A DNA stretch of 44,097 nucleotides, taken from NCBI GenBank assembly GCA_964583545.1, contig CAZOVW010000002.1, positions 1 through 44,097 of the forward strand, read 5' to 3'. A model generated the notes under the pieces. It saw nothing but the letters and a program-made list of their open reading frames with translations. It did not search any database and had not been told where the DNA came from. Both the position numbers and the translations under genes were made by a program. Positions 11,421-29,344 of the stretch are shown here, piece after piece (position 1 is the first letter of the stretch; each line of letters opens with the position of its first letter). The DNA comes from an uncultured Dehalococcoidales bacterium. GTDB lineage: Bacteria; Chloroflexota; Dehalococcoidia; E44-bin15.

Positions 11421-11657
11421 TTAATCCGCCACCACGCTAACCGTGATGGCATTCTTGGGGCATGTTTCCTCACAGATCTTGCATCCGGTACACAGGCTCG
11501 GGGAAACCGGCATTACCGCCCAGTTCCCCGCTGCTTTGCCCGGCTTTCGCCCATCCCGCGGATAGGTCATGAATACTCCTTGGGGACACGCATCAAGGCA
11601 CTTGCGGCAATCGCGCGGGGCGGTGCATTTCTTATCATCCCACTCTATTTTTATCAT
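11421..11657 (-). CDS. Small 2x[4Fe-4S] ferredoxin-like protein
   Basis: Carries CxxCxxxCP motifs (CRKCLDACP; CTGCKICEETCP). Start set at ATG 11657 (MIKIEWDDKKC), 4 nt after the upstream stop; the track ORF extends to 11717. Confidence 0.7.
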   Translation of the reverse strand: MIKIEWDDKKCTAPRDCRKCLDACPQGVFMTYPRDGRKPGKAAGNWAVMPVSPSLCTGCKICEETCPKNAITVSVVAD

Positions 11658-11661
11658 GGCA

Positions 11662-12474
11662 TCACCACTCGTTAGCCAGCACAGGGATCGCGTTGCGGTC
11701 AAACAGGGTAATCGCATCTCGCGGGCATGCTGTGCGGCACAGGCCGCAACCGAGACACTGCAGTTGGTTTACCGTGCACTTCTCTGAAGCATGTGAATAG
11801 TTGATCGCGCCGAAGTGGCAGAACTTGATGCAATCGCGGCAACCATTGCACTTCTCAATATCGATGGCGGTTACATACTCCGCCTTAAAGAAGGGCCGTT
11901 GCTCTCCGAACCGCATTGACCTGAAACTCAGACAATCCGTGGGGCTGCAGTTGCAGAGCGCGCCGATAAAGGGAGGGCCATAGCTCCACACAGTATGGAC
12001 CAGGCCCTGTCGGTCAAACTTATGGAACTCCCTCTTCGTCTCCTCATTGGTTAGTACATCCAGTTCCCTTGACACATCTGGCCACTGCTCGAACATATCT
12101 TTCCAGAAATCTGACTCGGCGGCAACAATGTGAAAGCAGAACCGAGCATCGCCCACGCCATGAAGGGCAGTCCGGCAGAGGCAGGGTGTCCTCACTATGT
12201 TGAGGGTCATATCCAGTATCTTTTCTACGTCTTCCAGAGGAATAACCTGTCCCCAGTGCATTTTCTTCATTTCCGTAAACGTCTTCCTGAGAGCCTCATC
12301 GGGGTTGTCTGACCTATCAAGAGCGGCCCAACCATGTGCCGCCCATGACTCAAGGTTCTCATATAGCCAAAGCGTGAACTGTCTTGCCTCATCCGTGAGC
12401 ACGTCCTCAAGGTAGTTTTTCACCTGAAGATACCATTTCTTTCCCTCACCGTGCTTAACACAAAACTCACACAT
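11662..12474 (-). CDS. 4Fe-4S dicluster domain protein with a Cys-containing N-terminal domain of unknown function
   Basis: 270 aa. Starts MCEFCVKHGEGKKWYL; two ferredoxin motifs near the C-terminus (CNGCRDCIKFC; CLGCGLCRTACP). Confidence 0.6.
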   Translation of the reverse strand: MCEFCVKHGEGKKWYLQVKNYLEDVLTDEARQFTLWLYENLESWAAHGWAALDRSDNPDEALRKTFTEMKKMHWGQVIPLEDVEKILDMTLNIVRTPCLCRTALHGVGDARFCFHIVAAESDFWKDMFEQWPDVSRELDVLTNEETKREFHKFDRQGLVHTVWSYGPPFIGALCNCSPTDCLSFRSMRFGEQRPFFKAEYVTAIDIEKCNGCRDCIKFCHFGAINYSHASEKCTVNQLQCLGCGLCRTACPRDAITLFDRNAIPVLANEW

Positions 12475-12550: not shown

Positions 12551-13492
12551 TCAAAGGCGCATCGCTTTGATAGACTCCGTGTCACTCATATTGAGAACTT
12601 GTACTTTATTACTAATCCTTTTGATCAGCTTGGAGAGGACTATCCCAGGGCCAATCTCTATGAAGGTGGAGACTCCGCCCCCTACCATATATTCCACTGA
12701 GAGCTGCCACTGAACACAGTGACATAGCTGCTGTAGGAGCTCTTCTTTCACCTCATCGAGGGTGGTTACAGGCTTAGCCGTGCTGTTAGCCACGATGGGA
12801 ACTTCGGGCGAGCGAAAGTTAACTCGTGAGATGGCCTGGGCCATGCCTTCAATGGTAGGCTGCATCAGGGCGGAATGAAAAGCGCCGCTAACCTCAAGCG
12901 GTACTACGCCGACGGCTCCTCTCGACTGGGCCAAGTCCATGGAGCGTGCCACTGCCTCCCTAGTGCCACTGATAACCATCTGCCCTGGGCAGTTGATATT
13001 GGCAATCTGGGTGGCGGTCTCCAGGCATATCTCTGCCACGGATGCCTCGTGAAGACCAATGATCGCTGCCATGCCTCCGGGTTTACTCTTGCCTACCTCC
13101 TGCATCAAGCGCCCTCGTTCCCTGGCAAGGCGAACCGCATCAACAAATTCAAGGGCGTTTGCGGCCACCAGCGCGGTGTACTCACCAATGCTATGTCCGG
13201 CGACAAGGGCGGGCTTTAGCGCACCATTGAGCTCTGAAGTAGCTTTTAAGTAGGCAATGCTGACTGTCAGTATTGCTGGCTGGGCATTAATGGTTTCGCG
13301 GAGTTCCTCCTCAGGACCTTCAAAACAAAGTCGGGACAGGGGAAATTGAAGCACTTGATCGGCCTCCTCGAAGACCTGCCTGGCCTGACGTGAACTCTGA
13401 TAAAGTTCGTAGCCCATCCCAACTGCCTGTGAGCCTTGTCCGGGAAAGACATAAGCAATCTTGCTTATCGGCCTTGTCTCTGGTTCAGCCAT
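12551..13492 (-). CDS. fabD: Malonyl-CoA:ACP transacylase
   Basis: 313 aa. FPGQGSQ and active-site GHSIGEY motifs. Confidence 0.9.
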   Translation of the reverse strand: MAEPETRPISKIAYVFPGQGSQAVGMGYELYQSSRQARQVFEEADQVLQFPLSRLCFEGPEEELRETINAQPAILTVSIAYLKATSELNGALKPALVAGHSIGEYTALVAANALEFVDAVRLARERGRLMQEVGKSKPGGMAAIIGLHEASVAEICLETATQIANINCPGQMVISGTREAVARSMDLAQSRGAVGVVPLEVSGAFHSALMQPTIEGMAQAISRVNFRSPEVPIVANSTAKPVTTLDEVKEELLQQLCHCVQWQLSVEYMVGGGVSTFIEIGPGIVLSKLIKRISNKVQVLNMSDTESIKAMRL

Positions 13493-13508: not shown

Positions 13509-14102
13509 TCAATAGTAACTGAAATCCTCCGCAATAATCCATTCAATTTCATTGTCGTCTTTAAGGACGGAAATAATATGATTTTTGTAATGCAATTGCT
13601 CGACTCGAAAGAAGCGATCTCGATACTCCAAGACAATATGATTCTCATCGGGAACCGAGATTACCCGACAGGTCTTTAACCCACCGATGCCGATTCCGAT
13701 AGCTTTTAGAGTCGCTTCTTTTGCAGTCCAATAGCGAAAAAAGGTATCCCAAGACCTGTCTTTGCTTAACTCCCATTCTCCGTCGCTTGCCACATGGCTA
13801 AAGATAGATTCGGACCGAGGCTTTATTTCTTCAATATCGATCCCGATCTTTTCCTTACTGACAACCGCTGTCACGTACTTCGATTTATGGGAGAGGGACC
13901 AATAATTGCCATCAAATGGGCACGGGACATCGTTTTCATCTTTCAGTAGCTCTCCAAGTATCACTCCGCTCTTTTCCGCACTCAATCTTAATGCCTCTCT
14001 CGAAATTCTGCTTAGCCTGGCCACTTTTTCTCTTCCAGAGAGTTTATGTCCAACCTCGGCAACTGTCAGGATTACCGGAAATAGAGTCATTGGTCTGGTC
14101 AA
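13509..14102 (-). CDS. 4'-phosphopantetheinyl transferase, Sfp-type
   Basis: 197 aa. IGIDIEE and [10 protein letters not shown] motifs. The TTG start overlaps the fabI-like stop (TTGA); an alternative ATG lies at 14090. Confidence 0.75.
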
Positions 14103-14899
14103 ACCCTCATTACCTTATTGATGATATCTTTGTCGAAGTAGTTGGTCGCCATTCCACAATCGACGATGATGCCTTGGGCATTAATGCCGCTCGATCGGTC
14201 GCTCAAAAGAAATGCCACTGTATTGGCCACTTCTTTGGTGGTTAGAGCTTTTTTGCGTAGCGTTAATTGTTCGGCATAAAGGTAGTAGTCCAGGTATCCT
14301 GGTATCCCTGCGGATGCGGAGGTTTTCAACAGCCCGGGATTGACTGAGTTGAACCTGACTTGAGAAAACGAACTGAAGGACTTGGCCAGAAAGCATATTG
14401 TCGAATCCAGAGCAGACTTTACAGGTGCCATCCAACCATAAGGTTCGGCTGCCATTCTTGTGGTTGAGATTGATATGGTAACTACAGATGCCTTCTTATC
14501 CAGGAGGTCTTTAAATGCGTTGGCAATACTAATTAACGAGTAACAGGATATGTCAACAGATTGCAGGAAGTCTTTCCTCTTTGTTTCGTGAAACGGCTTA
14601 AGTCCACCTTCGTAGTTGGCAAAAGCAATGGAATGAACAATGCCATGAAGCGTGGCATACTTTTGGGAGATGTCTTTCGCTAGTTTTGTGATCTGGTGTT
14701 CCTGTTCCACATCACATATATAGATGTCTGCATCAGGAAAAAGCTTGGAAACACTTTCCTTTATTTTTGCAGACTGAACTGCATAGACGACCTCTGCCTT
14801 TGCCTCAGAGAGAACCTGGCCCACAGAGTAGGCCACGCTCTTCTTGTTAGCCACACCAAAAACGAGGATGGTCTTATTCTCAATACCTAAGAAATCCAT
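14099..14899 (-). CDS. fabI: Enoyl-ACP reductase, FabI-like SDR
   Basis: 266 aa. N-terminus [18 protein letters not shown] is FabI-type. A Tyr-x6-Lys is present (YGWMAPVK). Confidence 0.65.
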
Positions 14900-14916
14900 A
14901 CGATTTCCTTTAAACT

Positions 14917-15342
14917 TTAGATTCCAGGTTTAGCTAAGCTAACAGCAAATTCAACCGTTACCACCGTCTTTCCTGCGACTGACGCGCTGCCCTTCAGGAA
15001 AAAGGCATTGCCCACTTTTTCCACCAACTCGGCTTCCATTTCTAAGAGGTCACCCGGCTTGACCATATTTTTGAACTTGGCGTTGCTAATTCGGGTCAGC
15101 ACAGGGGTACCATCGCCAACATCACCAATAATGCTGGAGAGCAGAATCGCCCCAGTTTGAAAAATGGACTCACAAGTAAGTACCCCTGGCATAATCGGAT
15201 TTCCTGGGTAATGCCCCTTGAAAAATGCTTCCTGGGAGCCTATCTCTTTTGTTGCTTTGATTTTCGTTGCTGTTAACTCTACGATTTTATCGACGAACAA
15301 AAAGGGTGGACGATGAGGTATCGCCTTCAAGACTTGCTCCAT
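14917..15342 (-). CDS. fabZ: 3-hydroxyacyl-ACP dehydratase, FabZ-like hotdog fold
   Basis: 141 aa. [11 protein letters not shown] and [13 protein letters not shown] motifs. Confidence 0.85.
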
Positions 15343-15343
15343 T

Positions 15344-16084
15344 TCATAAACCTCCAGTCACCTCAAGGGTAGAACCGTTAACGTATGACGCCTCTCTAGA
15401 AGCCAAGAAAAGAACGCAAGCAGCGACCTCCTCAGGCTTCCCGAATCTCTTTAAGGGGATCTGGGCTATATAAGAATCGCGTAATTCATTAGGAAGGTCT
15501 TGAATTAATTCGGTGGCGATAAATCCCGGCGAGACGCAATTGACCGTAATGCCGCGGCTGGCGACTTCCTTGGACAATGATTTGGTCAACGCAACTAGGC
15601 CTGCTTTTGCGGCGGCATAGTTTGCCTGGCCTTCAAAGCCATACTTGCCGGAAGGAGAGGTTATATTAATAATCCGTCCATATCGTTTGCGCATCAAGCT
15701 CATGACCGCAAACTTGCACATGTAAAAGACTCCGTTGAGATTGACATTCAGCACATCATGCCACTGCGATTCTTTCATCATGGCCAGGACAGCGTCCTTC
15801 CGAATACCTGCATTGTTGACAAGTACTTCGAATCCTTCATATTTCTTGTCTATGTATTCAAAAAACTTTTCAACCTCTTCATATTTAGCTACGTCATATT
15901 TTTGGATATCAATATTTTTAGCGAACTCGCTGTTGTCTTGCTTAAATTGTGCCGCAGCAGCTTCGTTTGCGGAGTAGGTGACAATAACTCGGGCACCAGC
16001 TTTCAGGAAACTCTCCGCAATGCTTTTGCCTATCCCTCTCGTGCCACCAGTGACGATGACGGTCTGCCCTTTAAAATCATACAT
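15344..16084 (-). CDS. fabG: 3-oxoacyl-ACP reductase, FabG-like SDR
   Basis: TGGTRGIG, NNAG and YAAAKAG motifs. Start set at ATG 16084 (MYDFKGQ), downstream of the preceding stop at 16108; the track ORF extends to 16111. Confidence 0.85.
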   Translation of the reverse strand: MYDFKGQTVIVTGGTRGIGKSIAESFLKAGARVIVTYSANEAAAAQFKQDNSEFAKNIDIQKYDVAKYEEVEKFFEYIDKKYEGFEVLVNNAGIRKDAVLAMMKESQWHDVLNVNLNGVFYMCKFAVMSLMRKRYGRIINITSPSGKYGFEGQANYAAAKAGLVALTKSLSKEVASRGITVNCVSPGFIATELIQDLPNELRDSYIAQIPLKRFGKPEEVAACVLFLASREASYVNGSTLEVTGGL

Positions 16085-16107
16085 CTGGGGCCCCCTGCAA
16101 GCCGAAA

Positions 16108-17514
16108 TCAAGACCGCAAATATTCGTCAGCATTATTCGAGACAATCACCCCATAGTTGGCCGCGCCCAACCAACCGGACATAATAATTCCCACCGACCC
16201 GGTATGGAAAAGTCCGGGTATCTCTTCGGGAAGTCCCATGCTGATTTTTAATCCTTCAAATTTGGTGCCAAAAGAAGCGCCACATTCGTGAAGAGTGTAC
16301 CTCTGAAATGTTTTTGGGGTAGCAGCTTCTACATAATCGATTTTCTCTTGGACTCCAGGAATATATTTCTCTAAAGCATCGAGTGTCGATTCGATTAATT
16401 CCTCTTTAGATGTGCGGTATTCTTCCTCGGACAGGCTTGCCCAGTCTTCGTAGTTTGCATTAGTCGAAGAAACAATCGAGTACATGTCAGAGCCTGGTCG
16501 GGTTTCTGGATAATAGATGGAGAAGGTCCGGCTGGTGATATTTTTGCTGCAAAGTTTTTCGGAATCGAATTTTTCTGCTACTGAGGTAAAAAGCAAATCA
16601 CCTATGTAGTCGAATCCTTCACCTTTTTTGATACCTATATAGACCTGGCAACTGCTGTTATTGAGGCGTACCTTTCTTGCCTCTTCAATGAAGCTTCCAG
16701 AAAAGTGCTCGTCCCCGACGAGTTTATGAATGGTCGATTTTAAATTACCGTTGGAGACAGCAGCCTTACACTTGATCATCTTTCCATTAGCGATTACTCC
16801 CGATACTTTTTGATCCTGGATGACAATTTTTTCCACCAGACACTTAGTCCGAATATCGACACCATTTCTTATTAGCTCAGCCTGCATCTCTCCAATAAAC
16901 TTGTCTGTCCCGCCTCGAACGGTATAAACGCCTTTACTCATGAAGTTGGAAAACACGATTCCATAAGTTATCGCTGGGTCATCTAGAGTTGATCCATTCG
17001 CATAGGTGATCGGTTCCATTAGCAGGCGGACAACATCGTCACGGCCAGGAAAGAACTTTTGAAAAAGCTCTCTGGTTGTCATGGTTTGGTCATCATAGAA
17101 ATTCATATCTCTGGCTGTATTGAAAAAGCTTTCAATATTCTCTCGGGGTATTTCGAATCGCTCCTGCAGGATGCGCGTGAAATCCTCCCTATCGTAAGTC
17201 GTTGTAAGGGAGAACTGAGGGTTGTCAAACCTAATTCCCTTGAGTTGAACAATCATGTTAGCAATTTCAGGGGTCCAGTACTTACGGCAGGTCTTAATCA
17301 TGCCGACTGGAAATCCATGCAAGGAGATATCGAAGATGTGCCCCCCTTTCCTCTTGAACCAGGTAGCCAATCCACCGAGCTGATGGTGATGTTCCAGAAG
17401 TAAAACTGAATGGCCGTTTTTCGCTAGTATGTTTGCACAAGTCAGTCCAGCCAATCCACTGCCAATGACGATGGCATCATATTCTGGCTTTGTGTCTTTG
17501 AACCGATCGCTCAT
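16108..17514 (-). CDS. FAD/NAD(P)-binding oxidoreductase, phytoene desaturase (CrtI)/RetSat family, copy 2
   Basis: About 468 aa. Dinucleotide fold [15 protein letters not shown]...[11 protein letters not shown]. Start preferred at ATG 17514 (GGGAAGG 6 nt upstream); the track start is TTG 17520. Confidence 0.75.
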
Positions 17515-17532
17515 CAGCAACCTTCCCTCTTC

Positions 17533-18918
17533 TTATCCCTTCTGTAGTATGTGAAGATTTGCCATGGAGACACCGCTAAGCATTGCTCCGACGATTCCCA
17601 GAAATCCTTGGTCCGTGCCACAAATAAACAGGTTATCTAAATGAGTTCTTCCTGTCTTGATTTTATTTGGAGTCCCATATACTGCGCCGTTTAAGTGACT
17701 GGTGAATCTGTAAATCGTTTTAGGAGTGAATACATCCGAATAAACGATTGAATCACGAAAATCTGGCACGAATTTTACCACCTCTTTAAGCGTGGTTTCA
17801 AGCCAGGCAGCTTTTTGGGCTTTATACTCTTCTTCACCTAGCTTGTTCCAGAGATCGAAATTAGCCATGTTGGTTACCCTGATCATGGCTTCGGGCAGTG
17901 GGCTTTCGAAGTGAAAATTGTTAGGGCAGCATATAACACCACTTGAAACATCAACCAAATCGTCTGGTTTTCTATAATTGAATTTATCCGAGTTATTAAA
18001 AAAGGTGATTGTTGTGTCATAGCCCATTTCAGCAAGTTCTCTATCCAAGATCATAATAAACTCTATGAATGAAAGTTGCCCCACATCACACTTGAATCTC
18101 GTAGGGTCATAGTCAGACAAAAGCCTCATGGTTTCAACATAACCAGCCGATGATATTATCTTATCAGCCGTCAGCACTTCACCATTATCGAGTAATATCG
18201 ACTCAACCTTGCTGTTAGCAACTTGAATACTTTGCACCCCGCACTTTAGCCTTAATTCGCCGCCGTTATCTTTATATTTCTTGACTAGTACATCGAGTAT
18301 CTGCCGGACACCAGCTTGGGGCCTGGCAAAACCTTCGCAGAAGATACTATTGAACATGATAACGAACTGCCCGAATTCCATGTCATTTTCCTGGGCATTG
18401 CCGTAGTACATGAGTGGGCAAAAGATCATATCAATGAGGAGCGGGTCAGAAATAATCGAGCTCACAACTTCGCAAGCCGAGATTGGTTTTGCATCCAGGG
18501 CCAATGCGTCATATTCAGAAATAGTTTTAAGCAACTTTTGAAAGTTGTCAGCTTGCGCTGGAAAATTCTCGACTACCTCTTGGGCAAAAAAGTCTAGGTT
18601 GTTATTAAATCTCAAGGTTTTCTCTGGGAATTTAACCACTGACATCCGTTGTTGGCAGAGAGCAAAATCTTCAACTTTTAGCTTGAGCTGTCGCAGTAAC
18701 TTTGGCAGTGGCGTTGCTTTGATACCTTTGGGAACATAATTGGTCATTGCATGAAGACCAACATCAAATTTATGTCCGTCCCGGCTATAGAATGAATTTA
18801 ATCCCCCGACACGATAATGTTTTTCGAGGATGCAAACCTTCTTACCGTAGTAGGCCAATCTAATGCCGGCGGCAAGACCAGACATTCCTGCGCCAATAAT
18901 GAGAACGTCGTAACTCAT
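17533..18918 (-). CDS. FAD/NAD(P)-binding oxidoreductase, phytoene desaturase (CrtI)/RetSat family, copy 1
   Basis: 461 aa. YDVLIIGAGMSGLAAG...ILEKHYRVGG. Paralogous in architecture to the downstream gene. Confidence 0.75.
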   Translation of the reverse strand: MSYDVLIIGAGMSGLAAGIRLAYYGKKVCILEKHYRVGGLNSFYSRDGHKFDVGLHAMTNYVPKGIKATPLPKLLRQLKLKVEDFALCQQRMSVVKFPEKTLRFNNNLDFFAQEVVENFPAQADNFQKLLKTISEYDALALDAKPISACEVVSSIISDPLLIDMIFCPLMYYGNAQENDMEFGQFVIMFNSIFCEGFARPQAGVRQILDVLVKKYKDNGGELRLKCGVQSIQVANSKVESILLDNGEVLTADKIISSAGYVETMRLLSDYDPTRFKCDVGQLSFIEFIMILDRELAEMGYDTTITFFNNSDKFNYRKPDDLVDVSSGVICCPNNFHFESPLPEAMIRVTNMANFDLWNKLGEEEYKAQKAAWLETTLKEVVKFVPDFRDSIVYSDVFTPKTIYRFTSHLNGAVYGTPNKIKTGRTHLDNLFICGTDQGFLGIVGAMLSGVSMANLHILQKG

Positions 18919-19037: not shown

Positions 19038-19289
19038 CTACATATCTTTCATCAGTGGCTCTAAATAAGCCACAGCGCCGTCCAATGTAGATAATCGCAT
19101 ATAGTCGTCTTCCGGCACCATGATACGGTAGCGTTTTCGCAACTCCATGATGATGTCCAAAAAATCCATCGAGTCCATTTCGATTTGATCTCGTATGGGG
19201 ACATCACTCTTAAGATCGCTCAAATCTTCGTCCGGTAAAATTTGGTGGATGAACTCTAAAATCTTGGATCTAATTTCCTCTGCTTTCAT
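19038..19289 (-). CDS. Acyl carrier protein (atypical, cluster-specific)
   Basis: 83 aa. The phosphopantetheine-Ser context EMDSMDFLDIIMEL differs from housekeeping AcpP (DLGADSLDTVELV). Confidence 0.8.
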   Translation of the reverse strand: MKAEEIRSKILEFIHQILPDEDLSDLKSDVPIRDQIEMDSMDFLDIIMELRKRYRIMVPEDDYMRLSTLDGAVAYLEPLMKDM

Positions 19290-19307: not shown

Positions 19308-20546
19308 TTATTCTTCAAATCTTTTGACGATAAGAACAGAGTTGATGCCCAACATTCCGAAAGAATTATTCAAGATATAGTCGACCTTATCGACCTTTTT
19401 GGGTTCGTTGATAACAAGGTTCTTAAGAGCACACTCAGGGTCTAAATTGTCCACATTGATCGTCTGGTGAACGATACGGTCTTCAAAGGAGGGTAAATTC
19501 CCCACTAATTCTAAAGCGCCAGCAGCCCCCATCGCATGGCCAATATAACTTTTGGTGTTGTTTATATACGCATTTGAATTATTCCCAAAGACCTCTCTGA
19601 TTGCCTGACATTCTGCCTTGTCCCCTTCAGGGGTTCCAGTGGCGTGTGTATTGATAATATCGATATCGCTTACTGATAGGCCAGCTTTTTTGAGAGCGAG
19701 CTTCATACACTCAGCCTGCCTTTCTGGGTTTGGAAGGATGAAATCAAATGCATCTGAGTTAATCGCATATCCGACGATTTCGCCGTAAATCTTGGCACCT
19801 CTTTCAAGTGCATCACCCAATTTTTCCAGAACGCAGATACAGCCACCTTCGGAAACAACGATACCGTTTCGGTTCTTATCAAAAGGGCGGGATGCCTTTT
19901 GAGGGTCGGGATGGCTCGCCAACGCCCCTTCGTTTTTAAAAGAGGCAAAAACACCGAATGTACGAGGGGTCTCTGAGACCCCCCCCGCCAGGGCCAAATC
20001 CACTTCACCCAGCAACAACATTTGTAAGCCTTGTATAATTCCAATGTTGCCGGCGGCGCAAGCGGCTCCCAATGTGTAGTGCGGGCCAGTAATCTTCATA
20101 TTCATGGTGACCTCGCCGGCTGGACTATTAGCCACCGTTCTTGGGTTATGGTGGTGGGACCAAAGATCTACATTGTAGTTATATTCCTTGATGTTATAAA
20201 CCTCGTTTTCTGTTTCCACGTTACCGTGCTCGGTAATCCCGAGATAGATGCCAATTCTCGATTTATCAACAGAAGCAAGCTCCAATTTCGAATCGGCGAT
20301 TGCTTCATGGGCGCAGTAGATCGCAATAGACCCTGCTCGCGTTCCACGACGCAGTTCCTTTTTACTCTGATACTTCAGTGGGTCAAAATCACACACACCA
20401 GCTATGACTTCACCCATGTAGTGGGTCTCGATTTTCCCTACTCCAGATTTGCCAGCAAGCAGATTCTGCCGAAACTCTGCAAGATTGTTTCCGTTTGGTG
20501 CTGTTAGACCAATCCCGGTTATTACAATTCGCGTTTCATTATTCAT
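19308..20546 (-). CDS. Beta-ketoacyl-ACP synthase, KAS I/II (FabF/FabB-like)
   Basis: 412 aa. Active-site Cys in GAACAAGN; His residues in HATGTPEGD and GHAMGAAG. Confidence 0.85.
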   Translation of the reverse strand: MNNETRIVITGIGLTAPNGNNLAEFRQNLLAGKSGVGKIETHYMGEVIAGVCDFDPLKYQSKKELRRGTRAGSIAIYCAHEAIADSKLELASVDKSRIGIYLGITEHGNVETENEVYNIKEYNYNVDLWSHHHNPRTVANSPAGEVTMNMKITGPHYTLGAACAAGNIGIIQGLQMLLLGEVDLALAGGVSETPRTFGVFASFKNEGALASHPDPQKASRPFDKNRNGIVVSEGGCICVLEKLGDALERGAKIYGEIVGYAINSDAFDFILPNPERQAECMKLALKKAGLSVSDIDIINTHATGTPEGDKAECQAIREVFGNNSNAYINNTKSYIGHAMGAAGALELVGNLPSFEDRIVHQTINVDNLDPECALKNLVINEPKKVDKVDYILNNSFGMLGINSVLIVKRFEE

Positions 20547-20594: not shown

Positions 20595-21644
20595 CTACCA
20601 TTTCACACCAAGCATAATACAAGATAAGCCGCTGCCAATTCCCAGCATCGCAATCTTATCACCACTATTAAGGTGACCCTCATCGATTGCTATGGCTAGC
20701 GTAATGGGAAGGGATACTGCTCCGATGTTTCCTAAGTATTCTACAGTGGAAAAGCCCTTTGAGTCACCCAGCCTCAGAGTATCGAACAGTAGCTCTTGAT
20801 GGACAACGCTAACCTGATGGCAGAAAACCTTATCTACATCTGAGTTGTGCCACCCCAGCTCTTTTCTTAAGGCCTTCCATGTTTCCTCCGCTAACAGCAG
20901 GCCATTTATCAGAATTCCTTGAGAGTCCGTACGCATAGTCGGACGGCTATTCGGGTTGAAGAAATAGGTATCATCTTCTATACGACAAAGGCCGCTGTGT
21001 TGTGAAGCAGTCCGTATCACCCCACCTAGAAGTTTATGGCTGGATTTTGACAGGGAGGAGTGTGTTAGCACCGCTGCTACTGCTCCGGATCCCAAGGTCA
21101 GAGTGGCAAAGGATGCTTTGAGCTTGGCTCTGGTCATGTTTGGGTCTTGCAAGATTTCATCTATTGTTGTGTCAGTGATGTGTCTACTGCTCTCGCTAGC
21201 AACCACAATTCCTGCTTTTACTTGGCCTAATTCGATCATATTTGCCAGAGTTACCATGCCGTTGACGAAACCCAAACAGGCATTTGAGATGTCGAAGATA
21301 GTGGCTGTGGGAGGGAGACCTAAAGAATCATGGACTAAGAAGGCTGTCGCCGGCTCTAGGAAGTCGCGACTAAGTGAAGTATGAAGGAGACATTCAATGT
21401 CTTCCTTCTCTATCTCAGAATTTGCGATGGCCTTTTCCGCTGCCGTTGTGCTAGCCCAACTCGGAGGCGTTCCGTCATTCCAGAATTGCCGCTCGCGAAT
21501 TCCGGTCATCATTTCGAGGCGACCGAAGGCAAGGTTCAGTTTATCGTATACCGGGGCTAACCTTTCCTCTAGGCTCAATGACGTGATGATGTTTCCTGGG
21601 AGTTTGTACCCAAAAGACTCAATGCAGACGTTTTTGTATAACAT
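20595..21644 (-). CDS. Thiolase-fold condensing enzyme of the FabH/OleA type
   Basis: 349 aa. Cys (SNACLGF), His (FCHQVS), Asn (GNIGAVSLP). The SRDFLEPATA segment and the N-terminal ...LEERLAPVYDKLNL...TGIRERQFW resemble OleA-type enzymes as I remember them more than E. coli FabH. Confidence 0.7.
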   Translation of the reverse strand: MLYKNVCIESFGYKLPGNIITSLSLEERLAPVYDKLNLAFGRLEMMTGIRERQFWNDGTPPSWASTTAAEKAIANSEIEKEDIECLLHTSLSRDFLEPATAFLVHDSLGLPPTATIFDISNACLGFVNGMVTLANMIELGQVKAGIVVASESSRHITDTTIDEILQDPNMTRAKLKASFATLTLGSGAVAAVLTHSSLSKSSHKLLGGVIRTASQHSGLCRIEDDTYFFNPNSRPTMRTDSQGILINGLLLAEETWKALRKELGWHNSDVDKVFCHQVSVVHQELLFDTLRLGDSKGFSTVEYLGNIGAVSLPITLAIAIDEGHLNSGDKIAMLGIGSGLSCIMLGVKW

Positions 21645-21764: not shown

Positions 21765-22178
21765 TTAATCTTTGCGTGATTTACCTTCCTCTCTCGATAG
21801 CAACGTTGGGATATGAAACTTCATCTTAAGATTTGACCAGCTATCAAGGGACTTCGAGGGAATTATCCTGTCCGGCACATACTTGTATATTCCGGCGATG
21901 ACAGCGGAAATCTTTCTCGAATTTGCTGCTGTATCCGGGATATACTCATCTGCTGCGGCAATAAGAGAAGAGCGCACCTTATGAGGAAGTTTATCTAGCT
22001 CATTAATGACCCTATCGATCGCTTTAGGTGGGACACACTTATCTAATATATTCATGAAAAGGAGCAGCAGGCTATCCGGCACATATCTGTCCACTACCTT
22101 TGCCGCAAGCGAGATTGCCTTCCTCGAGACAAATCTGCCCACCGATTTAAAGAGAGAAATTTTTCTCTTTGACAACAT
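21765..22178 (-). CDS. Hypothetical small protein with four [YC]-[VI]-P-[DP] repeats
   Basis: 137 aa from ATG 22178 (AGGAGGG 6-7 nt upstream); the track ORF starts at TTG 22208. Repeats are DRYVPD, DKCVPP, DEYIPD, YKYVPD. I recognise no family. Confidence 0.45.
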   Translation of the reverse strand: MLSKRKISLFKSVGRFVSRKAISLAAKVVDRYVPDSLLLLFMNILDKCVPPKAIDRVINELDKLPHKVRSSLIAAADEYIPDTAANSRKISAVIAGIYKYVPDRIIPSKSLDSWSNLKMKFHIPTLLSREEGKSRKD

Positions 22179-22240
22179 AGCTTTCCCTCCTGCTCGAATA
22201 TACTGCAACTAGTGGAATATAGTAATCTATGCGATGTATA

Positions 22241-22325: not shown

Positions 22326-23642
22326 CTAATTTTTGAGCCAAAAGTGGGTCTTATCAAATTCTTTCGATCGGTATCGCTCCCATCTTGGAAAAATCTCTTG
22401 GTAGATCCCAAGCCTTATCCCAATTAACTTTATAGCTCTCAGAAGTAGCATTCTAAGCATCCTTGGCTTACTAAGAAGTGCTTTCATCAGCACAAGAAGG
22501 GTTCTAGTCAGTGTAGGTGAGCATCCCTCTATTTTGGTGGCGTTCTGTAAGCTCTTATTACTTCTGATTGCACAGTCGCCGTAAAGAAAGACTTTTTTCG
22601 TATCTCTTTCTGGCCTTAATTCCAGCCCATAATATAACTCCACACCGCCAAAATCCATTTTAGGATTATCTTTGGCAAGTATTGATAGCGCTAAAGCGAG
22701 CGTGGCACCACAAGCTGAACAAAGGCTCTGTCCTGGAGGGGGAGCTGAAAGTCCTGTAACTTTTGCTGGGGTCAATAATTCTTTATCTGGTTCAAACTGC
22801 CACTCAAGCTGCTCCTTTAGAGATTCTATATCTTCTCCTTTGATTTGGATCGTGCTGATATCTAAAGATCGATTATGCCTTTCGGCAAATTCTCTCAGAT
22901 AGTCAACTTGTGACGGATCGATCCCCAGTATTGTTGCCCCAACAATATCGCACTCGAATATATCTGGGCTTGCTATAATCAAATCCTTGCGGTGGGCCAC
23001 CCCCACGAGAGTTTCTGGCCCTTTTCCCAACATGTATATTCCATCAATTATGACCAAGTCACTCTTGATTGCTTCGTTCAAAAGGCAAATTAGAGAATCT
23101 AGTCGGTTGGTAATATGAAACCTTTTTTTTGAAGCTTGGCTGAGGCAACCCTTCAGATTCTTGAAACCCAGAGAGACCTTTGTTTGGAAGTGGGTTTTTA
23201 GTACTGGGACATTGATTAGAAAGTCTGCCTCTAAAGCTGTTTTGGAAACCTGGACTTTTACCCCTCCTAAATCTAGCTCCTGAAAAGGACCCTGGTTGAA
23301 ATCGATCAGTTTAGCCCCGTATTTTTCAGCCACCTTGTCTATACCTGTCCCCTTAAAACCTCGTTTCGTATACGGCTCAAGTTCATCAAATATACCAATG
23401 ATGGCACCTTCACCTATAGAAATATCTTTGCAGCCATATTCGAGCAATAATTGTATGATTCCGTCTATGATCTTTGAGGTGGTCACCATTCCATAGGGAG
23501 GCATTATTTCGTGGCGGAAACAGTTATTGGGTTTTATCAGGATTTCGTCATTCCTATTGAGTTTCTCAAATCCATCACATAGTTTAATGGCGCGTCGAAT
23601 AGAATCAAGAGACCCATCAAATCTCACTAGCGATACTGTCAT
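22326..23642 (-). CDS. DUF362-domain protein with a C-terminal extension
   Basis: 438 aa. N-terminal ...ILIKPNN...MVTTSKIIDGIIQLLLEYGCKDISIGEG pattern typical of DUF362 (PF04015). C-terminal 130 aa contain Cys motifs (CSACG; YGDCAI; EGCSP) and a basic/hydrophobic tail. Confidence 0.5.
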   Translation of the reverse strand: MTVSLVRFDGSLDSIRRAIKLCDGFEKLNRNDEILIKPNNCFRHEIMPPYGMVTTSKIIDGIIQLLLEYGCKDISIGEGAIIGIFDELEPYTKRGFKGTGIDKVAEKYGAKLIDFNQGPFQELDLGGVKVQVSKTALEADFLINVPVLKTHFQTKVSLGFKNLKGCLSQASKKRFHITNRLDSLICLLNEAIKSDLVIIDGIYMLGKGPETLVGVAHRKDLIIASPDIFECDIVGATILGIDPSQVDYLREFAERHNRSLDISTIQIKGEDIESLKEQLEWQFEPDKELLTPAKVTGLSAPPPGQSLCSACGATLALALSILAKDNPKMDFGGVELYYGLELRPERDTKKVFLYGDCAIRSNKSLQNATKIEGCSPTLTRTLLVLMKALLSKPRMLRMLLLRAIKLIGIRLGIYQEIFPRWERYRSKEFDKTHFWLKN

Positions 23643-23686: not shown

Positions 23687-25045
23687 CTACTCCCTGACCA
23701 ACGGGTAGTTTCTTATTTCTTCGAGGTATGAGTCCAGAAAACTCTGAGCCTTTTCCCTGGAGAAGAGGCCGGTTCTATAGCCCAGGCAGACCTGCAACCT
23801 GCCGCTGTAGGTGTATGTCCCCAGGCTCAGCCCCATGGGGGTAACCAGTGGCGGGGCGGTTTCCATGTTCACTATCTTGGCGCTGCCGATTCGGAGCTCT
23901 CCCCATTCTTCGGGCCAGACCACGCCTACATTACTAACGAAAGTGGTATCAACATATATTCGAGTAATCATCAAGAACCTGCACATTGCTCTCATAACGA
24001 CCTGGGGAAAGCGAGAACAAAAGTAATAGAAATAAACCAGGGAGTATTGGATGCCATCCTTGACTATTGAGGCCATATCCACCCTCACCTTATGTAGCAG
24101 CTTTACCGGGTCAGCCCTATCTTCGGGCATGGTCGGTAGGGAAACCCAGGCTACCTGGTTTGAAACCACATCCTTAGGCCCCCTGGGCCCGATGAATGTG
24201 GGAACCATTAGGCGTATACATTTGCTACCTTTGCCGTGCAGGCTGTTCCATCTCTCAATAACCCTGAAGCAGGCTGCCAGCAGGACATCATTCAGGGTAA
24301 CACGAGCTGCCTTTGCTCTTGACCGAATTTGCCCAAACTCTGCTGGGTCTATGGTCCTATTGCAGTAGTCGGTTCCCTTTGACCGCTCTGACCTGTCGTG
24401 GAAGATCCTTGTCGGTGGGTGGAAAGGTGCTATGAAGAATCGATGGAAAAGGCTATAGATCATTTTCATATAGTAGTGCTCTACGCTTGGCCTTTGGCTG
24501 CGTGCAAATTGTAGTATTTCATCCCCTTTACGGGATATGGGGAAATCATCGAGGGACTTAGAGTCTTCAGGAACGTCCTTATCGTAACTTTCAAAGATCT
24601 TCCGGATGAAAAGAACGGCGCCGAGCCCATCCACTGCAATGTGATGACCAGTGAAAATCAGTGAAGATTCAACCTCATTCTTTTTTAAGAGAAGGGCTCT
24701 AAATGGGAATTCCTTCCATAGGTTCAGGGGTTGGTTTATCCATTCAGAAAGGCACCTCTCATAGTTTGCATCTGGGAGTTTGGCCAGGTCTTTGACAGTC
24801 AGAGCTTTCTCTCCGAGGTCTTCCTGTACTTCTTGGAAAGTCCTGAAATACTTACTTCGCAGGATTGTTCTCATTTGGGGATGAGCTTTTAGGGCGGATA
24901 GGATTGCTCGATTCAACCTATCGGCATCTATTTCTCCTTCGATGTTCAGGATTTGGTGGGCAATCATAGGCTCGTTTATGCTGTCAAGAGCTAGTAGACA
25001 CTTGCTAACGCAATTCAGAGGCATTCGAACGTTGGAATTTCCCAT
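23687..25045 (-). CDS. HHxxxDG acyltransferase (condensation / WS-DGAT / PapA5 superfamily), paralogue A
   Basis: 452 aa. Catalytic motif GHHIAVDGLG at about residue 134; N-terminal IEGEIDADRLNRAILSALKAHPQMRTIL resembles C-domain motifs C1-C2. GGGAGG RBS. Confidence 0.7.
   Translation of the reverse strand: MGNSNVRMPLNCVSKCLLALDSINEPMIAHQILNIEGEIDADRLNRAILSALKAHPQMRTILRSKYFRTFQEVQEDLGEKALTVKDLAKLPDANYERCLSEWINQPLNLWKEFPFRALLLKKNEVESSLIFTGHHIAVDGLGAVLFIRKIFESYDKDVPEDSKSLDDFPISRKGDEILQFARSQRPSVEHYYMKMIYSLFHRFFIAPFHPPTRIFHDRSERSKGTDYCNRTIDPAEFGQIRSRAKAARVTLNDVLLAACFRVIERWNSLHGKGSKCIRLMVPTFIGPRGPKDVVSNQVAWVSLPTMPEDRADPVKLLHKVRVDMASIVKDGIQYSLVYFYYFCSRFPQVVMRAMCRFLMITRIYVDTTFVSNVGVVWPEEWGELRIGSAKIVNMETAPPLVTPMGLSLGTYTYSGRLQVCLGYRTGLFSREKAQSFLDSYLEEIRNYPLVRE
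24545..24987 (-). repeat. Identical block shared with 28416-28858 (inside paralogue A)
   Basis: Line-by-line comparison at offset 3871 shows no mismatch across about 443 nt. Identity drops on both sides. Confidence 0.85.
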
Positions 25046-25074: not shown

Positions 25075-26631
25075 TTAATTGACCTGACGCTCCTGTCCCT
25101 CCCAGTACTTCTTGCGCAGTTCAGCCTTCAGTACTTTGCCTGCGAGGTTCTTTGGTAGGAGTTCCACGAACTCGACTGACTTGGGTTTCTTGTATGATGC
25201 CAGGTTTTCCTTACAGCCCCGGATAATCTCTTCTTCGCTCGCCTTCATTCCCGGCTTCAGTTTCACAAAGGCTTTTATAGACTCCCCCCACACCTCGTCA
25301 GGGATGCCGATAACCGCCGTCTCAAGTACAGCCGGGTGCTTAAAGATAGCATTCTCCACTTCCATGGGATACACGTTATAGCCTCCAGTGATAATCATGT
25401 CCGTTTTACGGTCAGCTATAAATAAGTATCTTTCCTCATCGAGATACCCCATATCCCCCGTAAAAAGCCACCCATCTCTTATCGCTTTCTGAGTTGCTTC
25501 CGGGTCTTTCCAGTACTCCTTCATCACCAATGGGCTGCGGACGATGATTTCTCCTTTCTCTCCTGTCGGGACATCATTTCCGTCATCATCCACCACGCGT
25601 ATATTGGTCATGACGAGCTCGCGTCCCGCTGACCCTAACCGACGAGTTTGCTCATCAGTGCCTCCGATTACGTGATCATCCACGCTCAGCGAGGTTATAA
25701 AGAAGCACTCCACCAAACCATAGGCCTGGATGAACACATCTCCGAAAACATCCAGTGCCTGTTTCAACTTCTCCACAGCCATGGGTGCGGAGGAATAAGG
25801 GAGTCTCCTCAGAGTGCTGAGGTCATAATTCTTGAGGTTAGGGTAGGCGAGGAGGAAATAGATGATAGTGGGTGCCAGCCATACCGTGGTGACTTTTTCC
25901 TTTTGAATTGTATCCAGAGCGAAATCGATGTCGAGGTGGCTGATGAGGATGTTGGGCACCCCCATCATGAAATGGGGTGGGAGGAGAACGCCCGAGGCGT
26001 GGTTTATGGAGGCGACGTAGAGGGCCACATCGTCGGGTTGGACATTTGTTTCAATACAGTACATATAGGTGGCCATTATAAGGGCCCTATGCGTTTGCAC
26101 ACAGCCCTTGGCCTTGCCGGTGGTGCCCGAAGTATGGAGGATGGCAATAGGGTCGTTCTCATCGATTTCCACTCGCGTGGGTTTGTCGCTTGCTTTGTCC
26201 ATAAGGTCCTCATACCTCTCCATACCAGAGAAGCCCTCGCCATCTACTATGAAGTGCTCCACAGTCTCGATCTTATCTTTCACAGAGTCTATGCCTTCGG
26301 CGAACTTCTGCTGGATGATAAGGGCTCGGGACTCCGCGTTGTTAAGATGGTAGGCATGCTCCAAGGGGTGATGACGGGAATCTAAAGGTGCCCATACCAT
26401 GCCGTTCTTGATCAGTCCATACTGGGCTTCTACGGCCATCAGAGAATTTTCTGCCAGTATCGAGACACGGTCGCCTTTCTTAAGGCCAAGACCGTGTAGG
26501 ACATTGCCTATCTTGTTTACCTGCTTCTCCAACTCCCGGTAGGTCACCCGGCGGTCAGCGTGGACTACTGCTACCCGGTCAGGATAATTCATAAACCCTC
26601 TTTTTACCAGACTCCACAAATCCATTTTCAT
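25075..26631 (-). CDS. AMP-forming acyl-CoA/acyl-ACP ligase (ANL superfamily, FadD-like)
   Basis: 518 aa. A3 motif LHTSGTTGKAKG and TGD/GYxxxxDR core (FTGDMGYLDEERYLFIADRKTDMI). Confidence 0.85.
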   Translation of the reverse strand: MKMDLWSLVKRGFMNYPDRVAVVHADRRVTYRELEKQVNKIGNVLHGLGLKKGDRVSILAENSLMAVEAQYGLIKNGMVWAPLDSRHHPLEHAYHLNNAESRALIIQQKFAEGIDSVKDKIETVEHFIVDGEGFSGMERYEDLMDKASDKPTRVEIDENDPIAILHTSGTTGKAKGCVQTHRALIMATYMYCIETNVQPDDVALYVASINHASGVLLPPHFMMGVPNILISHLDIDFALDTIQKEKVTTVWLAPTIIYFLLAYPNLKNYDLSTLRRLPYSSAPMAVEKLKQALDVFGDVFIQAYGLVECFFITSLSVDDHVIGGTDEQTRRLGSAGRELVMTNIRVVDDDGNDVPTGEKGEIIVRSPLVMKEYWKDPEATQKAIRDGWLFTGDMGYLDEERYLFIADRKTDMIITGGYNVYPMEVENAIFKHPAVLETAVIGIPDEVWGESIKAFVKLKPGMKASEEEIIRGCKENLASYKKPKSVEFVELLPKNLAGKVLKAELRKKYWEGQERQVN

Positions 26632-27551: not shown

Positions 27552-28928
27552 TCAACACTCCCTGACCACGGGGTAGTTTCTTATCTCTTCAACATATAGG
27601 TCTAAAAACCTCTGAGCCTTTTCCCTGGAGAAGAGGCCGGTTCTATAGCCCAGGCAGACCTGCAACCTGCCGTTGTAGACGGATGTCACCAGGGTCATCG
27701 GCAGGAGGGACCCAACAGGTGGAACGCCCTCTATGCCCACTATCCTGGCGCTGCCGATTCGGAGCTCTTCTCTCCATGCTTCGGGCCAGATCACGCCTAG
27801 GTTACTAACGACAATGGTATCAACATATATTCGAGTAATCATAAAGAACCTGGCCATTCCTCTCATAACCACCAGAGGAAAGCGAGAGAGGAGGTAAGCG
27901 AGGTAAAGTTGGGAGAAGGGGATTCCATTCTTGACCATTGAGGCCATATTCGCCCTCACCTTATGTAGCAGCTTTACTGGATCGGCCCTATCTTTGGGCA
28001 TGGTCGGTAGGGAAATCCCGGATACCTGGTTTGAAACCACATCCTTAGGCCACTTGGGCCCGATGAATAGGGGAGTCCATATGCGTATACATTTGCTGCG
28101 TTTGCCGTGCAGGCTGTTCCATCTCTCAATAACCCTGAAGCAGGCTGCCAGCAGGACATCGTTCAGGGTAACGCGGGCTGCCTTCGCTCTTGACCGAATT
28201 TGCCCAAACTCTGCTGGGTCTATGGTACCATTGCAGTAGCCGGTTCCCTCTGACTGCCCCGACCTGTCGTGGAAGATCCTTCTCGTTGGGTGAAAAGGCG
28301 CTATGAAGAATCGATGGAAAAGGCTGTAGATCATTTTCATATAGTAGTGCTCCACGCTTGGCCTTTGGCTGCGTGCAAATTGCAGTATTTCATCCCCTTT
28401 ACGGGATATGGGGATATCATCGAGGGACTTAGAGTCTTCAGGAACGTCCTTATCGTAACTTTCAAAGATCTTCCGGATGAAAAGAACGGCGCCGAGCCCA
28501 TCCACTGCAATGTGATGACCAGTGAAAATCAGTGAAGATTCAACCTCATTCTTTTTTAAGAGAAGGGCTCTAAATGGGAATTCCTTCCATAGGTTCAGGG
28601 GTTGGTTTATCCATTCAGAAAGGCACCTCTCATAGTTTGCATCTGGGAGTTTGGCCAGGTCTTTGACAGTCAGAGCTTTCTCTCCGAGGTCTTCCTGTAC
28701 TTCTTGGAAAGTCCTGAAATACTTACTTCGCAGGATTGTTCTCATTTGGGGATGAGCTTTTAGGGCGGATAGGATTGCTCGATTCAACCTATCGGCATCT
28801 ATTTCTCCTTCGATGTTCAGGATTTGGTGGGCAATCATAGGCTCGTTTATGCTGTCAACAGCTAATATACCCTTCTCAATGGAATTCAGAGGCATTGACC
28901 TGCCGGGCCTTTTCACTTTTCTTTGCAT
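27552..28928 (-). CDS. HHxxxDG acyltransferase, paralogue B
   Basis: Same GHHIAVDGLG motif. The N-terminal half is almost identical to paralogue A and the C-terminal half diverges. Start is uncertain: ATG 28928 or ATG 28895 (MPLNS..., matching A). The track ORF start at 29006 overlaps the SRPBCC gene. Confidence 0.7.
   Translation of the reverse strand: MQRKVKRPGRSMPLNSIEKGILAVDSINEPMIAHQILNIEGEIDADRLNRAILSALKAHPQMRTILRSKYFRTFQEVQEDLGEKALTVKDLAKLPDANYERCLSEWINQPLNLWKEFPFRALLLKKNEVESSLIFTGHHIAVDGLGAVLFIRKIFESYDKDVPEDSKSLDDIPISRKGDEILQFARSQRPSVEHYYMKMIYSLFHRFFIAPFHPTRRIFHDRSGQSEGTGYCNGTIDPAEFGQIRSRAKAARVTLNDVLLAACFRVIERWNSLHGKRSKCIRIWTPLFIGPKWPKDVVSNQVSGISLPTMPKDRADPVKLLHKVRANMASMVKNGIPFSQLYLAYLLSRFPLVVMRGMARFFMITRIYVDTIVVSNLGVIWPEAWREELRIGSARIVGIEGVPPVGSLLPMTLVTSVYNGRLQVCLGYRTGLFSREKAQRFLDLYVEEIRNYPVVREC
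28416..28858 (-). repeat. Identical block shared with 24545-24987 (inside paralogue B)
   Basis: See the feature at 24545-24987. Confidence 0.85.
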
Positions 28929-29344
28929 AGCGATCGCTCGATCCTCGTTTTTGCTGCTGGCGCAATCTTGTCTGAGATTGCTTGACCACCTCGGTATGCC
29001 AGCCATGCCAGGGGCCCTGAGACCTCGCCGCCTATAGTGACCCTCGTTTTGCCATTTACAGGTTCCAGAGTATAGAAGCGTGTTAACTTGGTGCCTAAGG
29101 CTTTTCCTTGCATGACCACGGCGCGTTGTGGGACGAATTCGGTGATAGTCATCACCAACTTAACTCTGATCCTGCTTACCTTAAGTGTCACAGAAAGTTG
29201 TGAGCCTACTGTCAAAGGCCCCTCGGGGACTCTCTCAATCTTCTTAATGGACGGTATCCATTCGGACCACTCTTCAAGATTATCAACTAACGTCCAGACC
29301 TTCTCTAGAGGAGCATTGATCTCAACACTGCTGCTAAACCTCAT
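28913..29344 (-). CDS. SRPBCC (polyketide cyclase/START-like) family protein
   Basis: MRFSSSVEINAPLEKVWTLVDNLEEWSEWIPS... is a typical SRPBCC N-terminus. Start set at ATG 29344 (GAGGGGG RBS) rather than track TTG 29410. Confidence 0.65.
   Translation of the reverse strand: MRFSSSVEINAPLEKVWTLVDNLEEWSEWIPSIKKIERVPEGPLTVGSQLSVTLKVSRIRVKLVMTITEFVPQRAVVMQGKALGTKLTRFYTLEPVNGKTRVTIGGEVSGPLAWLAYRGGQAISDKIAPAAKTRIERSLCKEK

Follow-up and report, generated by a model that had tools for sequence, protein, structure and literature searches.

A 44,097-nucleotide stretch of DNA from an uncultured Dehalococcoidales bacterium (GenBank assembly GCA_964583545.1, contig CAZOVW010000002.1, positions 1 to 44,097), which we refer to as the window, carries on its minus strand two adjacent flavoprotein genes, named here FADA and FADB, within a cluster of genes for type II fatty acid synthesis (FASII). 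An original prediction made from the letters of the window alone had described two tandem CrtI/RetSat-family flavoenzymes between an acyl carrier protein (ACP) gene and fabG, and the open reading frames (ORFs), the Pfam matches and the coordinates all agreed with that description. Both ORFs are intact and fill the interval 16108–18918 exactly. The pair is placed between the ACP gene upstream (19038–19289) and fabG (15344–16111), the latter overlapping the end of FADB.

17533..18918, minus strand: FADA, 461 amino acids (aa), ATG start; CrtI-superfamily flavoprotein by Pfam and NCBIfam matches
16108..17520, minus strand: FADB, 470 aa, TTG start; flavoprotein paralogous to FADA

Judging by the consensus start of FADB sequences, the real start of FADB is probably the ATG at position 17514, and the spacer between the two genes measures 12–18 nt depending on which FADB start is taken. 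A full-length match to Pfam Amino_oxidase was obtained for both proteins (E values of 9e-15 for FADA and 2e-18 for FADB), and Pfam NAD_binding_8, the FAD dinucleotide motif, was located at the N-terminus of each, where an FAD fold had been anticipated. The two proteins share 24% identity (E 1e-30). Relatives of FADA at 84–95% identity number in the hundreds, and FADA and FADB are neighbors in nearly all related loci, usually with a gap of 11–30 nt. The pair is the product of an ancient duplication within the CrtI/CrtISO/RetSat superfamily.

Family Placement of FADA and FADB

When the two proteins were compared with the NCBIfam models, the carotenoid isomerase model (carot_isom, TIGR02730) ranked first at 106 bits for FADA and 109 bits for FADB against a cut-off of 587, and crtI_fam (TIGR02734) gave 73 and 84 bits, respectively, against a cut-off of 238; the scores of the pair lie 3–5 times under the CrtI and CrtISO family cut-offs. 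Against CrtI references that pass the cut-off, phmmer returned 20–45 bits; a tblastn search of plasmid sequences for annotated CrtI references yielded just three generic oxidoreductases. The AlphaFold model of FADB (pLDDT 89.6) was nearest to the gamma-carotenoid desaturase CrtD (4rep; Z 33.8, rmsd 2.9 over 436 residues), followed by 3ka7, 3nrn and plant PDS, and the top Foldseek matches of the FADA model were 4rep and 4dgk. The three-domain architecture of CrtI and CrtD is present in FADA and FADB together with the N-terminal FAD fold. The polyenoic fatty acid isomerase PAI (2b9w) came 30th in the comparison with the FADB model at a Z of 24.1, on a par with amine oxidases and PPO, and the PAI analogy of the original prediction was not confirmed.

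A tree of 65 rows was calculated with 13 CrtI-family references past the cut-off, all of them from Planctomycetota, and seven CrtI-superfamily paralogues of the same genome; it took in no CrtISO, RetSat, UfaD or PAI references and carries a long-branch warning. The FADA and FADB clades each received a support of 100 and were joined to one another at 95, and the joint clade was separate from the 13 CrtI references (support 99) and from the seven other paralogues of the genome.

No SQS_PSY (phytoene/squalene synthase) was found in the 1.2-Mb assembly, whose completeness judged from marker genes is 100%, and there was no isoprenoid or carotenoid gene among the cluster genes scanned against Pfam, as the prediction had said of the neighborhood. 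Orthology to carotenoid enzymes with a pathway elsewhere in the genome was also looked for, and what we found were scores under the cut-offs, a separate clade and a genome lacking SQS_PSY. One planctomycete with FADA and FADB has three true CrtI-family genes elsewhere in its genome. A phytoene-dehydrogenase signature (PROSITE-like) occurred in 0 of 62 FADA/FADB sequences but in only 6 of the 13 references, and is hence weak; isoelectric points gave no separation of FADA and FADB from CrtI. FADA and FADB belong to the CrtI superfamily but to no carotenoid enzyme family.

The same 1.2-Mb genome, which has no phytoene synthase, encodes at least seven more CrtI-superfamily flavoproteins, several of them in tandem and none reaching the CrtI cut-off (contig C69, 6–1442; C101, 203–1693; C34, 4193–8663; C1, 55284–59381; C28, 5686–10540).

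OleA and the Conserved Module

The context that turned out to be decisive was missing from the original prediction, namely the OleA/Ole pathway, with the Pfa synthase as an alternative partner. The genes that accompany FADA and FADB in the module are listed below.

20595..21644, minus strand: OleA-type thiolase for head-to-head condensation, initially taken for KASIII; NF006720 and OleA structures
19308..20546, minus strand: divergent FabF-type ketosynthase; fabF model at 337 bits, under the cut-off of 494, and synteny
19038..19289, minus strand: dedicated ACP; PP-binding match, DSM motif containing the serine, conserved position immediately upstream of FADA
15344..16111, minus strand: FabG ketoreductase; domain matches
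14917..15342, minus strand: FabZ-type dehydratase, not FabA-type; PRK00006 at 124 bits (cut-off 113), FabA model at 35 bits
14099..14899, minus strand: FabI-type enoyl-ACP reductase; Pfam and NCBIfam
13509..14102, minus strand: Sfp-type phosphopantetheinyl transferase (PPTase); domain matches

The thiolase gene scored 435 bits on NF006720, against a cut-off of 285, and structures of Xanthomonas campestris OleA matched its product over the full length (E 5e-63), with FabH at 1e-22 or weaker. The catalytic residues Cys143, Glu117, His285 and Asn315 of OleA are kept, the aligned positions being C123, E97 (in SRDFLEP), CHQVS and GNIG. On sequence grounds, the gene that had been read as KASIII is OleA.

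The module FabF-ACP-FADA / FADB-FabG-FabZ-FabI adjoins oleA or oleABCD in five phyla. It falls into two sub-operons, FabF-ACP-FADA, outside of which FADA does not occur, and FADB-FabG-FabZ-FabI, with or without the PPTase gene, whose three fab genes always accompany FADB. Synteny with oleA or oleABCD was observed at about 45 Chloroflexota loci, in Nitrospirales, at 20 of 20 Bdellovibrionota loci, in Planctomycetota and in a Desulfobacterota-type phylum. In Dehalococcoidia the order is hyp147-OleA-FabF-ACP-FADA-FADB-FabG-FabZ-FabI-PPTase (hyp147 being a gene for a 147-aa protein), often followed by convergent DUF362 and acyltransferase genes, and in Nitrospirales it is OleABCD-FabF-ACP-FADA-FADB-FabG-FabZ-FabI-PPTase. 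All 20 Bdellovibrionota loci show regulator-FabF-ACP-FADA-OleABCD with FADB-FabG-FabZ-FabI nearby, and FADB was present in each of the five Bdellovibrionota genomes checked; Planctomycetota and the Desulfobacterota-type phylum have the same genes permuted, with oleABCD. Relatives in other phyla carry OleB, OleC and OleD, and for the Bdellovibrionota neighbors the best models were OleC and OleD, the OleB-like gene being haloalkane-dehalogenase-like.

The distribution of the module is patchy. Relatives of FADA were collected from 57 genome loci, mostly of Dehalococcoidia, and FADA was detected in 16 of 301 sampled genomes of the window's class and in just one of 14 other genomes of its own family. 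The counts were 50/251 for Planctomycetota, 36/201 for Bdellovibrionota and 14/201 for the Desulfobacterota-type phylum.

Several variants were seen among these loci. A duplicated OleA-FabF unit (OleA-FabF-ACP-OleA-FabF-FADA) occurs in six, mostly of Dehalococcoidia (L009, L014, L016, L019, L047, and L054), and is reminiscent of beta-lactone pathways with their heterodimeric OleA homologues. In one Planctomycetales genome (L056, 14261–19450), the place of OleBCD after OleA is taken by a 695-aa GMC oxidoreductase and an AMP ligase, an arrangement that may be another downstream variant. The FADA proteins of some Planctomycetota and Desulfobacterales metagenome-assembled genomes (L016, on the Planctomycetota chromosome CP070790.1, L031 and L034) are 80–87% identical to the Dehalococcoidia type, whereas the versions native to their own phyla are only about 50% identical to it; such identity across phyla suggests a recent inter-phylum transfer or a binning error.

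Co-occurrence with OleA and Pfa

OleA was present in every sampled FADA-positive genome of Planctomycetota (50/50) and of Bdellovibrionota (36/36). Among the 88 OleA-positive Planctomycetota genomes, 48 had FADA only, 37 had PfaA only, two had both and one had neither, an exclusivity with a Fisher p of 3e-21 that is uncorrected for kinship. The Pfa synthase is known to pass 16:4-ACP directly to OleA, giving C31:9, and a 31:8 ketone results from oleA and pfa when OleBCD is absent (PMC6463001); co-occurrence of Pfa-like clusters with ole genes has been reported in Geobacter and planctomycetes (PMC3098273). Taken together with this published handover from Pfa to OleA, the FADA/Pfa pattern suggests that the FADA module fills the genomic role of acyl supplier. 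In the literature searched we found no paper tying OleA to phytoene-desaturase-like genes.

Link to Acyl-ACP Chemistry

The position of the two genes within the module is fixed, with FADA always after the ACP gene and FADB always before fabG or fabZ. Rare fusion proteins were also recovered, which join FADA to FADB (P0276, on two contigs, and P0277), FADB to FabZ (P0122) and FADB to FabI (P0279). No FabA-type isomerase occurs in the module, its dehydratase being FabZ-type, and with a plain FabZ as dehydratase FADA and FADB would be the sole parts of the module able to create or keep double bonds. A tie of the pair to acyl-ACP chemistry is thus supported by gene order and content. The original prediction had proposed action on an acyl chain within a FAS-like operon by desaturation, isomerisation or saturation; the tie to acyl-ACP upholds the action on an acyl chain.

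A separate product of 859 aa (P0278) has a GHMP-kinase (galactokinase-like) domain ahead of a FADB orthologue; it was found on one contig and is probably a gene-calling artefact.

The Cluster in the Dehalococcoidales Genome

In the window the module is part of a co-directional array of about 17 kb that encodes a C-domain acyltransferase, a short-chain dehydrogenase/reductase (SDR), an acyl-CoA ligase, a second acyltransferase, DUF362, the 147-aa protein, OleA, FabF, ACP, FADA, FADB, FabG, FabZ, FabI, PPTase and FabD. The members outside the list above are as follows.

27552..29006, minus strand: Condensation/WS-DGAT-like acyltransferase C1, paralogue of C2
26638..27429, minus strand: FabG/BadH-like SDR, not OleD; family matches
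25075..26631, minus strand: generic long-chain fatty-acid CoA ligase rather than OleC; PRK06187 at 487 bits (cut-off 476)
23687..25045, minus strand: Condensation/WS-DGAT-like acyltransferase C2; domain matches
22326..23642, minus strand: DUF362 protein, a conserved member of the Dehalococcoidia-type cluster
21765..22208, minus strand: 147-aa small basic protein with Y-x-P-D repeats, upstream of OleA; no family match
12551..13492, minus strand: FabD malonyl transferase at the island edge; second copy on contig C20, 67% identical

The module core from OleA to PPTase (about 8.1 kb) has a G+C content of 45.0%, compared with 54.7% for the remaining window, and this deviation is the largest among 81 related loci. 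In this Dehalococcoidia genome the cluster is a horizontally acquired low-GC island, and its patchy distribution and low G+C mark it as accessory. A housekeeping FAS was ruled out, given that just 16 of the 301 class genomes have the cluster.

OleC models were absent from the 25 best families of the ligase, and in the whole assembly OleB, OleC and OleD gave only weak generic matches. Nor was a Pfa synthase (PfaA-type KS-AT-ACP) found in the assembly, where the partial matches came only from stand-alone FabD and FabF. The absence of OleBCD makes a ketone or ester a likelier product here than an olefin; from the ketone formed by oleA and pfa without OleBCD (PMC6463001), we would predict a ketone or else a 2-alkyl-3-oxo/hydroxy acid on which the acyltransferases act.

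Acyltransferases C1 and C2 are 84.5% identical over 446 aa, with the ligase and the SDR between them, a likeness suggestive of recent duplication, or of gene conversion, within the island. The 147-aa protein (pI 10.1) contains four Y/C-x-P-D/P repeats and was matched only in Chloroflexota-type loci, at 46–66% identity. Apart from the island copies at 14099–15342, no FabA/FabZ-type domain and no FabI were detected in the 1.2-Mb assembly, and its other FAS genes comprise a second FabF (contig C9), FabD and ACP (C20) and FabK-like genes (C4 and C29). With a single FabZ, either the housekeeping FAS borrows the island copy or the assembly misses a gene.

Two ferredoxin-like genes at the operon end (11421–12474), encoding a 270-aa Fe-S protein and a 98-aa ferredoxin, had been proposed as electron partners of the flavoenzymes. 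Among the related loci extending far enough to show them, not one has these two genes, and their absence from all related clusters makes the pair look like part of the host, not of the island. Paralogous pairs exist elsewhere in the genome (C7, 30942–31978 and C14, 21250–22341, with identities of 42%/49% and 32%/35%). The idea of the terminal ferredoxins as conserved electron partners was abandoned on these two grounds.

Proposed Role of FADA and FADB and Alternative Explanations

From family placement, synteny, co-occurrence and fusions, which were observed directly, we infer a substrate, a chemistry and a product, and propose with modest confidence that FADA and FADB isomerise or dehydrogenate ACP-bound intermediates of a dedicated type II FAS that feeds unsaturated chains to OleA. 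The module FabF-ACP-FADA / FADB-FabG-FabZ-FabI would supply acyl chains to OleA, the thiolase that performs the head-to-head Claisen condensation, and the two flavoproteins would act upon ACP-bound intermediates of the elongation cycle. A trans-2-enoyl-ACP may be isomerised redox-neutrally with reduced flavin, as in CrtISO, or dehydrogenation may come first and isomerisation after it, such that an unsaturated, perhaps polyunsaturated, acyl-ACP would arrive at OleA in a manner requiring neither O2 nor a Pfa synthase. In this genome the predicted product is a long-chain ketone, or a 2-alkyl-3-oxo/hydroxy acid that would pass to the SDR and both WS/DGAT-like acyltransferases. A broader and more tentative suggestion is that bacteria have in this module a third way to polyunsaturated acyl chains, in addition to O2-dependent desaturases and Pfa, by which a CrtISO-like pair would perform on ACP the isomerisation that the FabA-like domains perform in Pfa.

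A number of observations weigh against this proposal. The computation does not tell isomerase, desaturase and saturase apart, nor does it show polyunsaturated chains. OleA scores in Planctomycetota divide along with the partner, FADA or Pfa, and this split and the kinship of the genomes mean that the exclusivity may stem from few evolutionary events. Ten OleA-positive Bdellovibrionota genomes carry neither FADA nor Pfa, indicating that Ole can do without both suppliers. The fusion proteins are singletons that may be gene-calling artefacts and serve as leads only, the AlphaFold model of FADA is moderate (pLDDT 74.6), and the two Kuenenia CrtI-like proteins, kuste3336 and kuste3607, failed to replace CrtI (PMC4790861).

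An unlikely alternative places the pair after the condensation. OleA, with or without OleBCD, would join ordinary chains, and FADA and FADB would then desaturate beside the central double bond or keto group, on the model of CrtI, CrtN and HpnE, which act on phytoene, dehydrosqualene and hydroxysqualene, respectively, each after a head-to-head condensation. The strict tie of FADA to OleA (86/86 genomes) and a fold nearest to CrtD and CrtI, enzymes of long free hydrophobic chains, both fit such tailoring, and mutual exclusion of FADA and Pfa would also be expected from two alternative routes to a polyunsaturated hydrocarbon. What it leaves unexplained is the constant company of a private KS, ACP, KR, DH, ER and PPTase (ketosynthase, carrier protein, ketoreductase, dehydratase, enoyl reductase and phosphopantetheinyl transferase), as well as a FADA that always stands behind the ACP gene and a FADB fused to FabZ and FabI. 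Moreover, CrtI-type chemistry leads to conjugated polyenes, but the known C31:9 is methylene-interrupted according to the reference list of PMC6463001. A RetSat-like saturase or reductase, in which one or both proteins would reduce a specific C=C with reduced flavin, as an extra enoyl reductase or by trimming unsaturation, is less probable again. The top-scoring curated model is of the CrtISO type, and one source names a 61%-identical relative of FADB 'all-trans-retinol 13,14-reductase', but the module already has a FabI, even one fused to FADB, no gene for a low-potential electron donor is conserved with the pair (the ferredoxins are not), and complementarity with the Pfa synthase would not be explained by a reductase.

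It is highly improbable that FADA and FADB are genes of a known pathway, be it that of carotenoid or squalene desaturases, of the furan fatty-acid enzyme UfaD or of ladderane synthesis, all of which we rejected. Membership of the superfamily and the proposal of CrtI-like genes for ladderanes (PMC2649909) are all that speak for it. The carotenoid version conflicts with scores far under the cut-offs, with the lack of SQS_PSY and with the three real CrtI-family genes that one host of the pair has elsewhere. The analogy to UfaD drawn in the original prediction was not confirmed: UfaD works with the CMAS-type methylase UfaM and with UfaO, and the cluster contains no such methylase, for which the genome gives one marginal 27-bit match on contig C4. 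Its ladderane link also proved weak, with no radical S-adenosylmethionine (SAM) gene in the cluster and with six invariant FADA/FADB motifs missing from the published, truncated sequences of kuste3336 and kuste3607, a comparison limited to a motif check. The hosts with a taxonomic placement, which are Chloroflexota, Bdellovibrionota, Nitrospirales and Desulfobacterota-type genomes, belong to groups not known for anammox.

Comparison with Known Systems

FADA and FADB share with CrtI, CrtD, CrtISO and RetSat (4rep, 4dgk) the FAD Rossmann motif and the three-domain fold, but they form a separate clade and their genomic partners are ACP, KS, KR, DH, ER and OleA. H. pylori FabX provides a precedent for a flavoenzyme that makes or moves a C=C in fatty acyl chains, and belongs, as an FMN enzyme, to the NMO family, whose fold is unlike that of FADA and FADB. 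PAI of C. acnes (2b9w) is also such a precedent, but acts on free fatty acids. If our proposal is true, the CrtI/CrtISO/RetSat superfamily would extend to fatty acyl substrates bound to a carrier protein.

Among the closest published systems are the FASII clusters of Kuenenia stuttgartiensis and Desulfotalea psychrophila, which contain CrtI-like genes and were described by Rattray et al. in 2009 together with a proposed anaerobic route to polyunsaturated fatty acids (PUFA) (PMC2649909). D. psychrophila has tandem CrtI-like genes in its FASII clusters and produces hydrocarbons of the C31:8 and C31:9 types in the absence of a polyketide synthase-type PUFA pathway (PMC2649909); its tandem pair DP2405/DP2406 is likened to FADA and FADB here by the published description. 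An FKRKG stretch common to FADB and to kuste3336 and kuste3607 points to a related subfamily. The cluster differs from those of Kuenenia and Desulfotalea in that no radical SAM or SAM-methylase genes are among its genes. Our sequence-based reading makes FADA and FADB the best candidates for O2-independent double-bond insertion in lipid chains, and the route of Rattray et al. and the origin of C31:8 and C31:9 in bacteria lacking Pfa would become testable through one operon. A third route of this kind would explain C31:9-type hydrocarbons in Pfa-less anaerobes and planctomycetes. Seven to eleven ordinary-sized genes would then encode the O2-independent synthesis of unsaturated, possibly polyunsaturated, lipid chains, a small set of potential appeal for engineering the production of hydrocarbons or PUFA. 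Uncultured sediment Dehalococcoidia, with OleA but not OleBCD, would be expected to make unrecognised unsaturated ketone or ester lipids that are possible biomarkers.

The proposed functional parallel is with OleABCD fed by Pfa in Shewanella and Photobacterium (PMC6463001; PMC3098273). Common to both are an OleA with the full catalytic set and a dedicated acyl-ACP supplier encoded beside the ole genes or co-occurring with them, and the FADA module takes over Pfa's place in the genomes of Planctomycetota. This genome differs from OleABCD systems by being without OleB, OleC and OleD. The supplier differs as well: Pfa is a multidomain synthase with FabA-like DH domains, whereas the supplier described here is a dissociated type II synthase accompanied by two flavoproteins.

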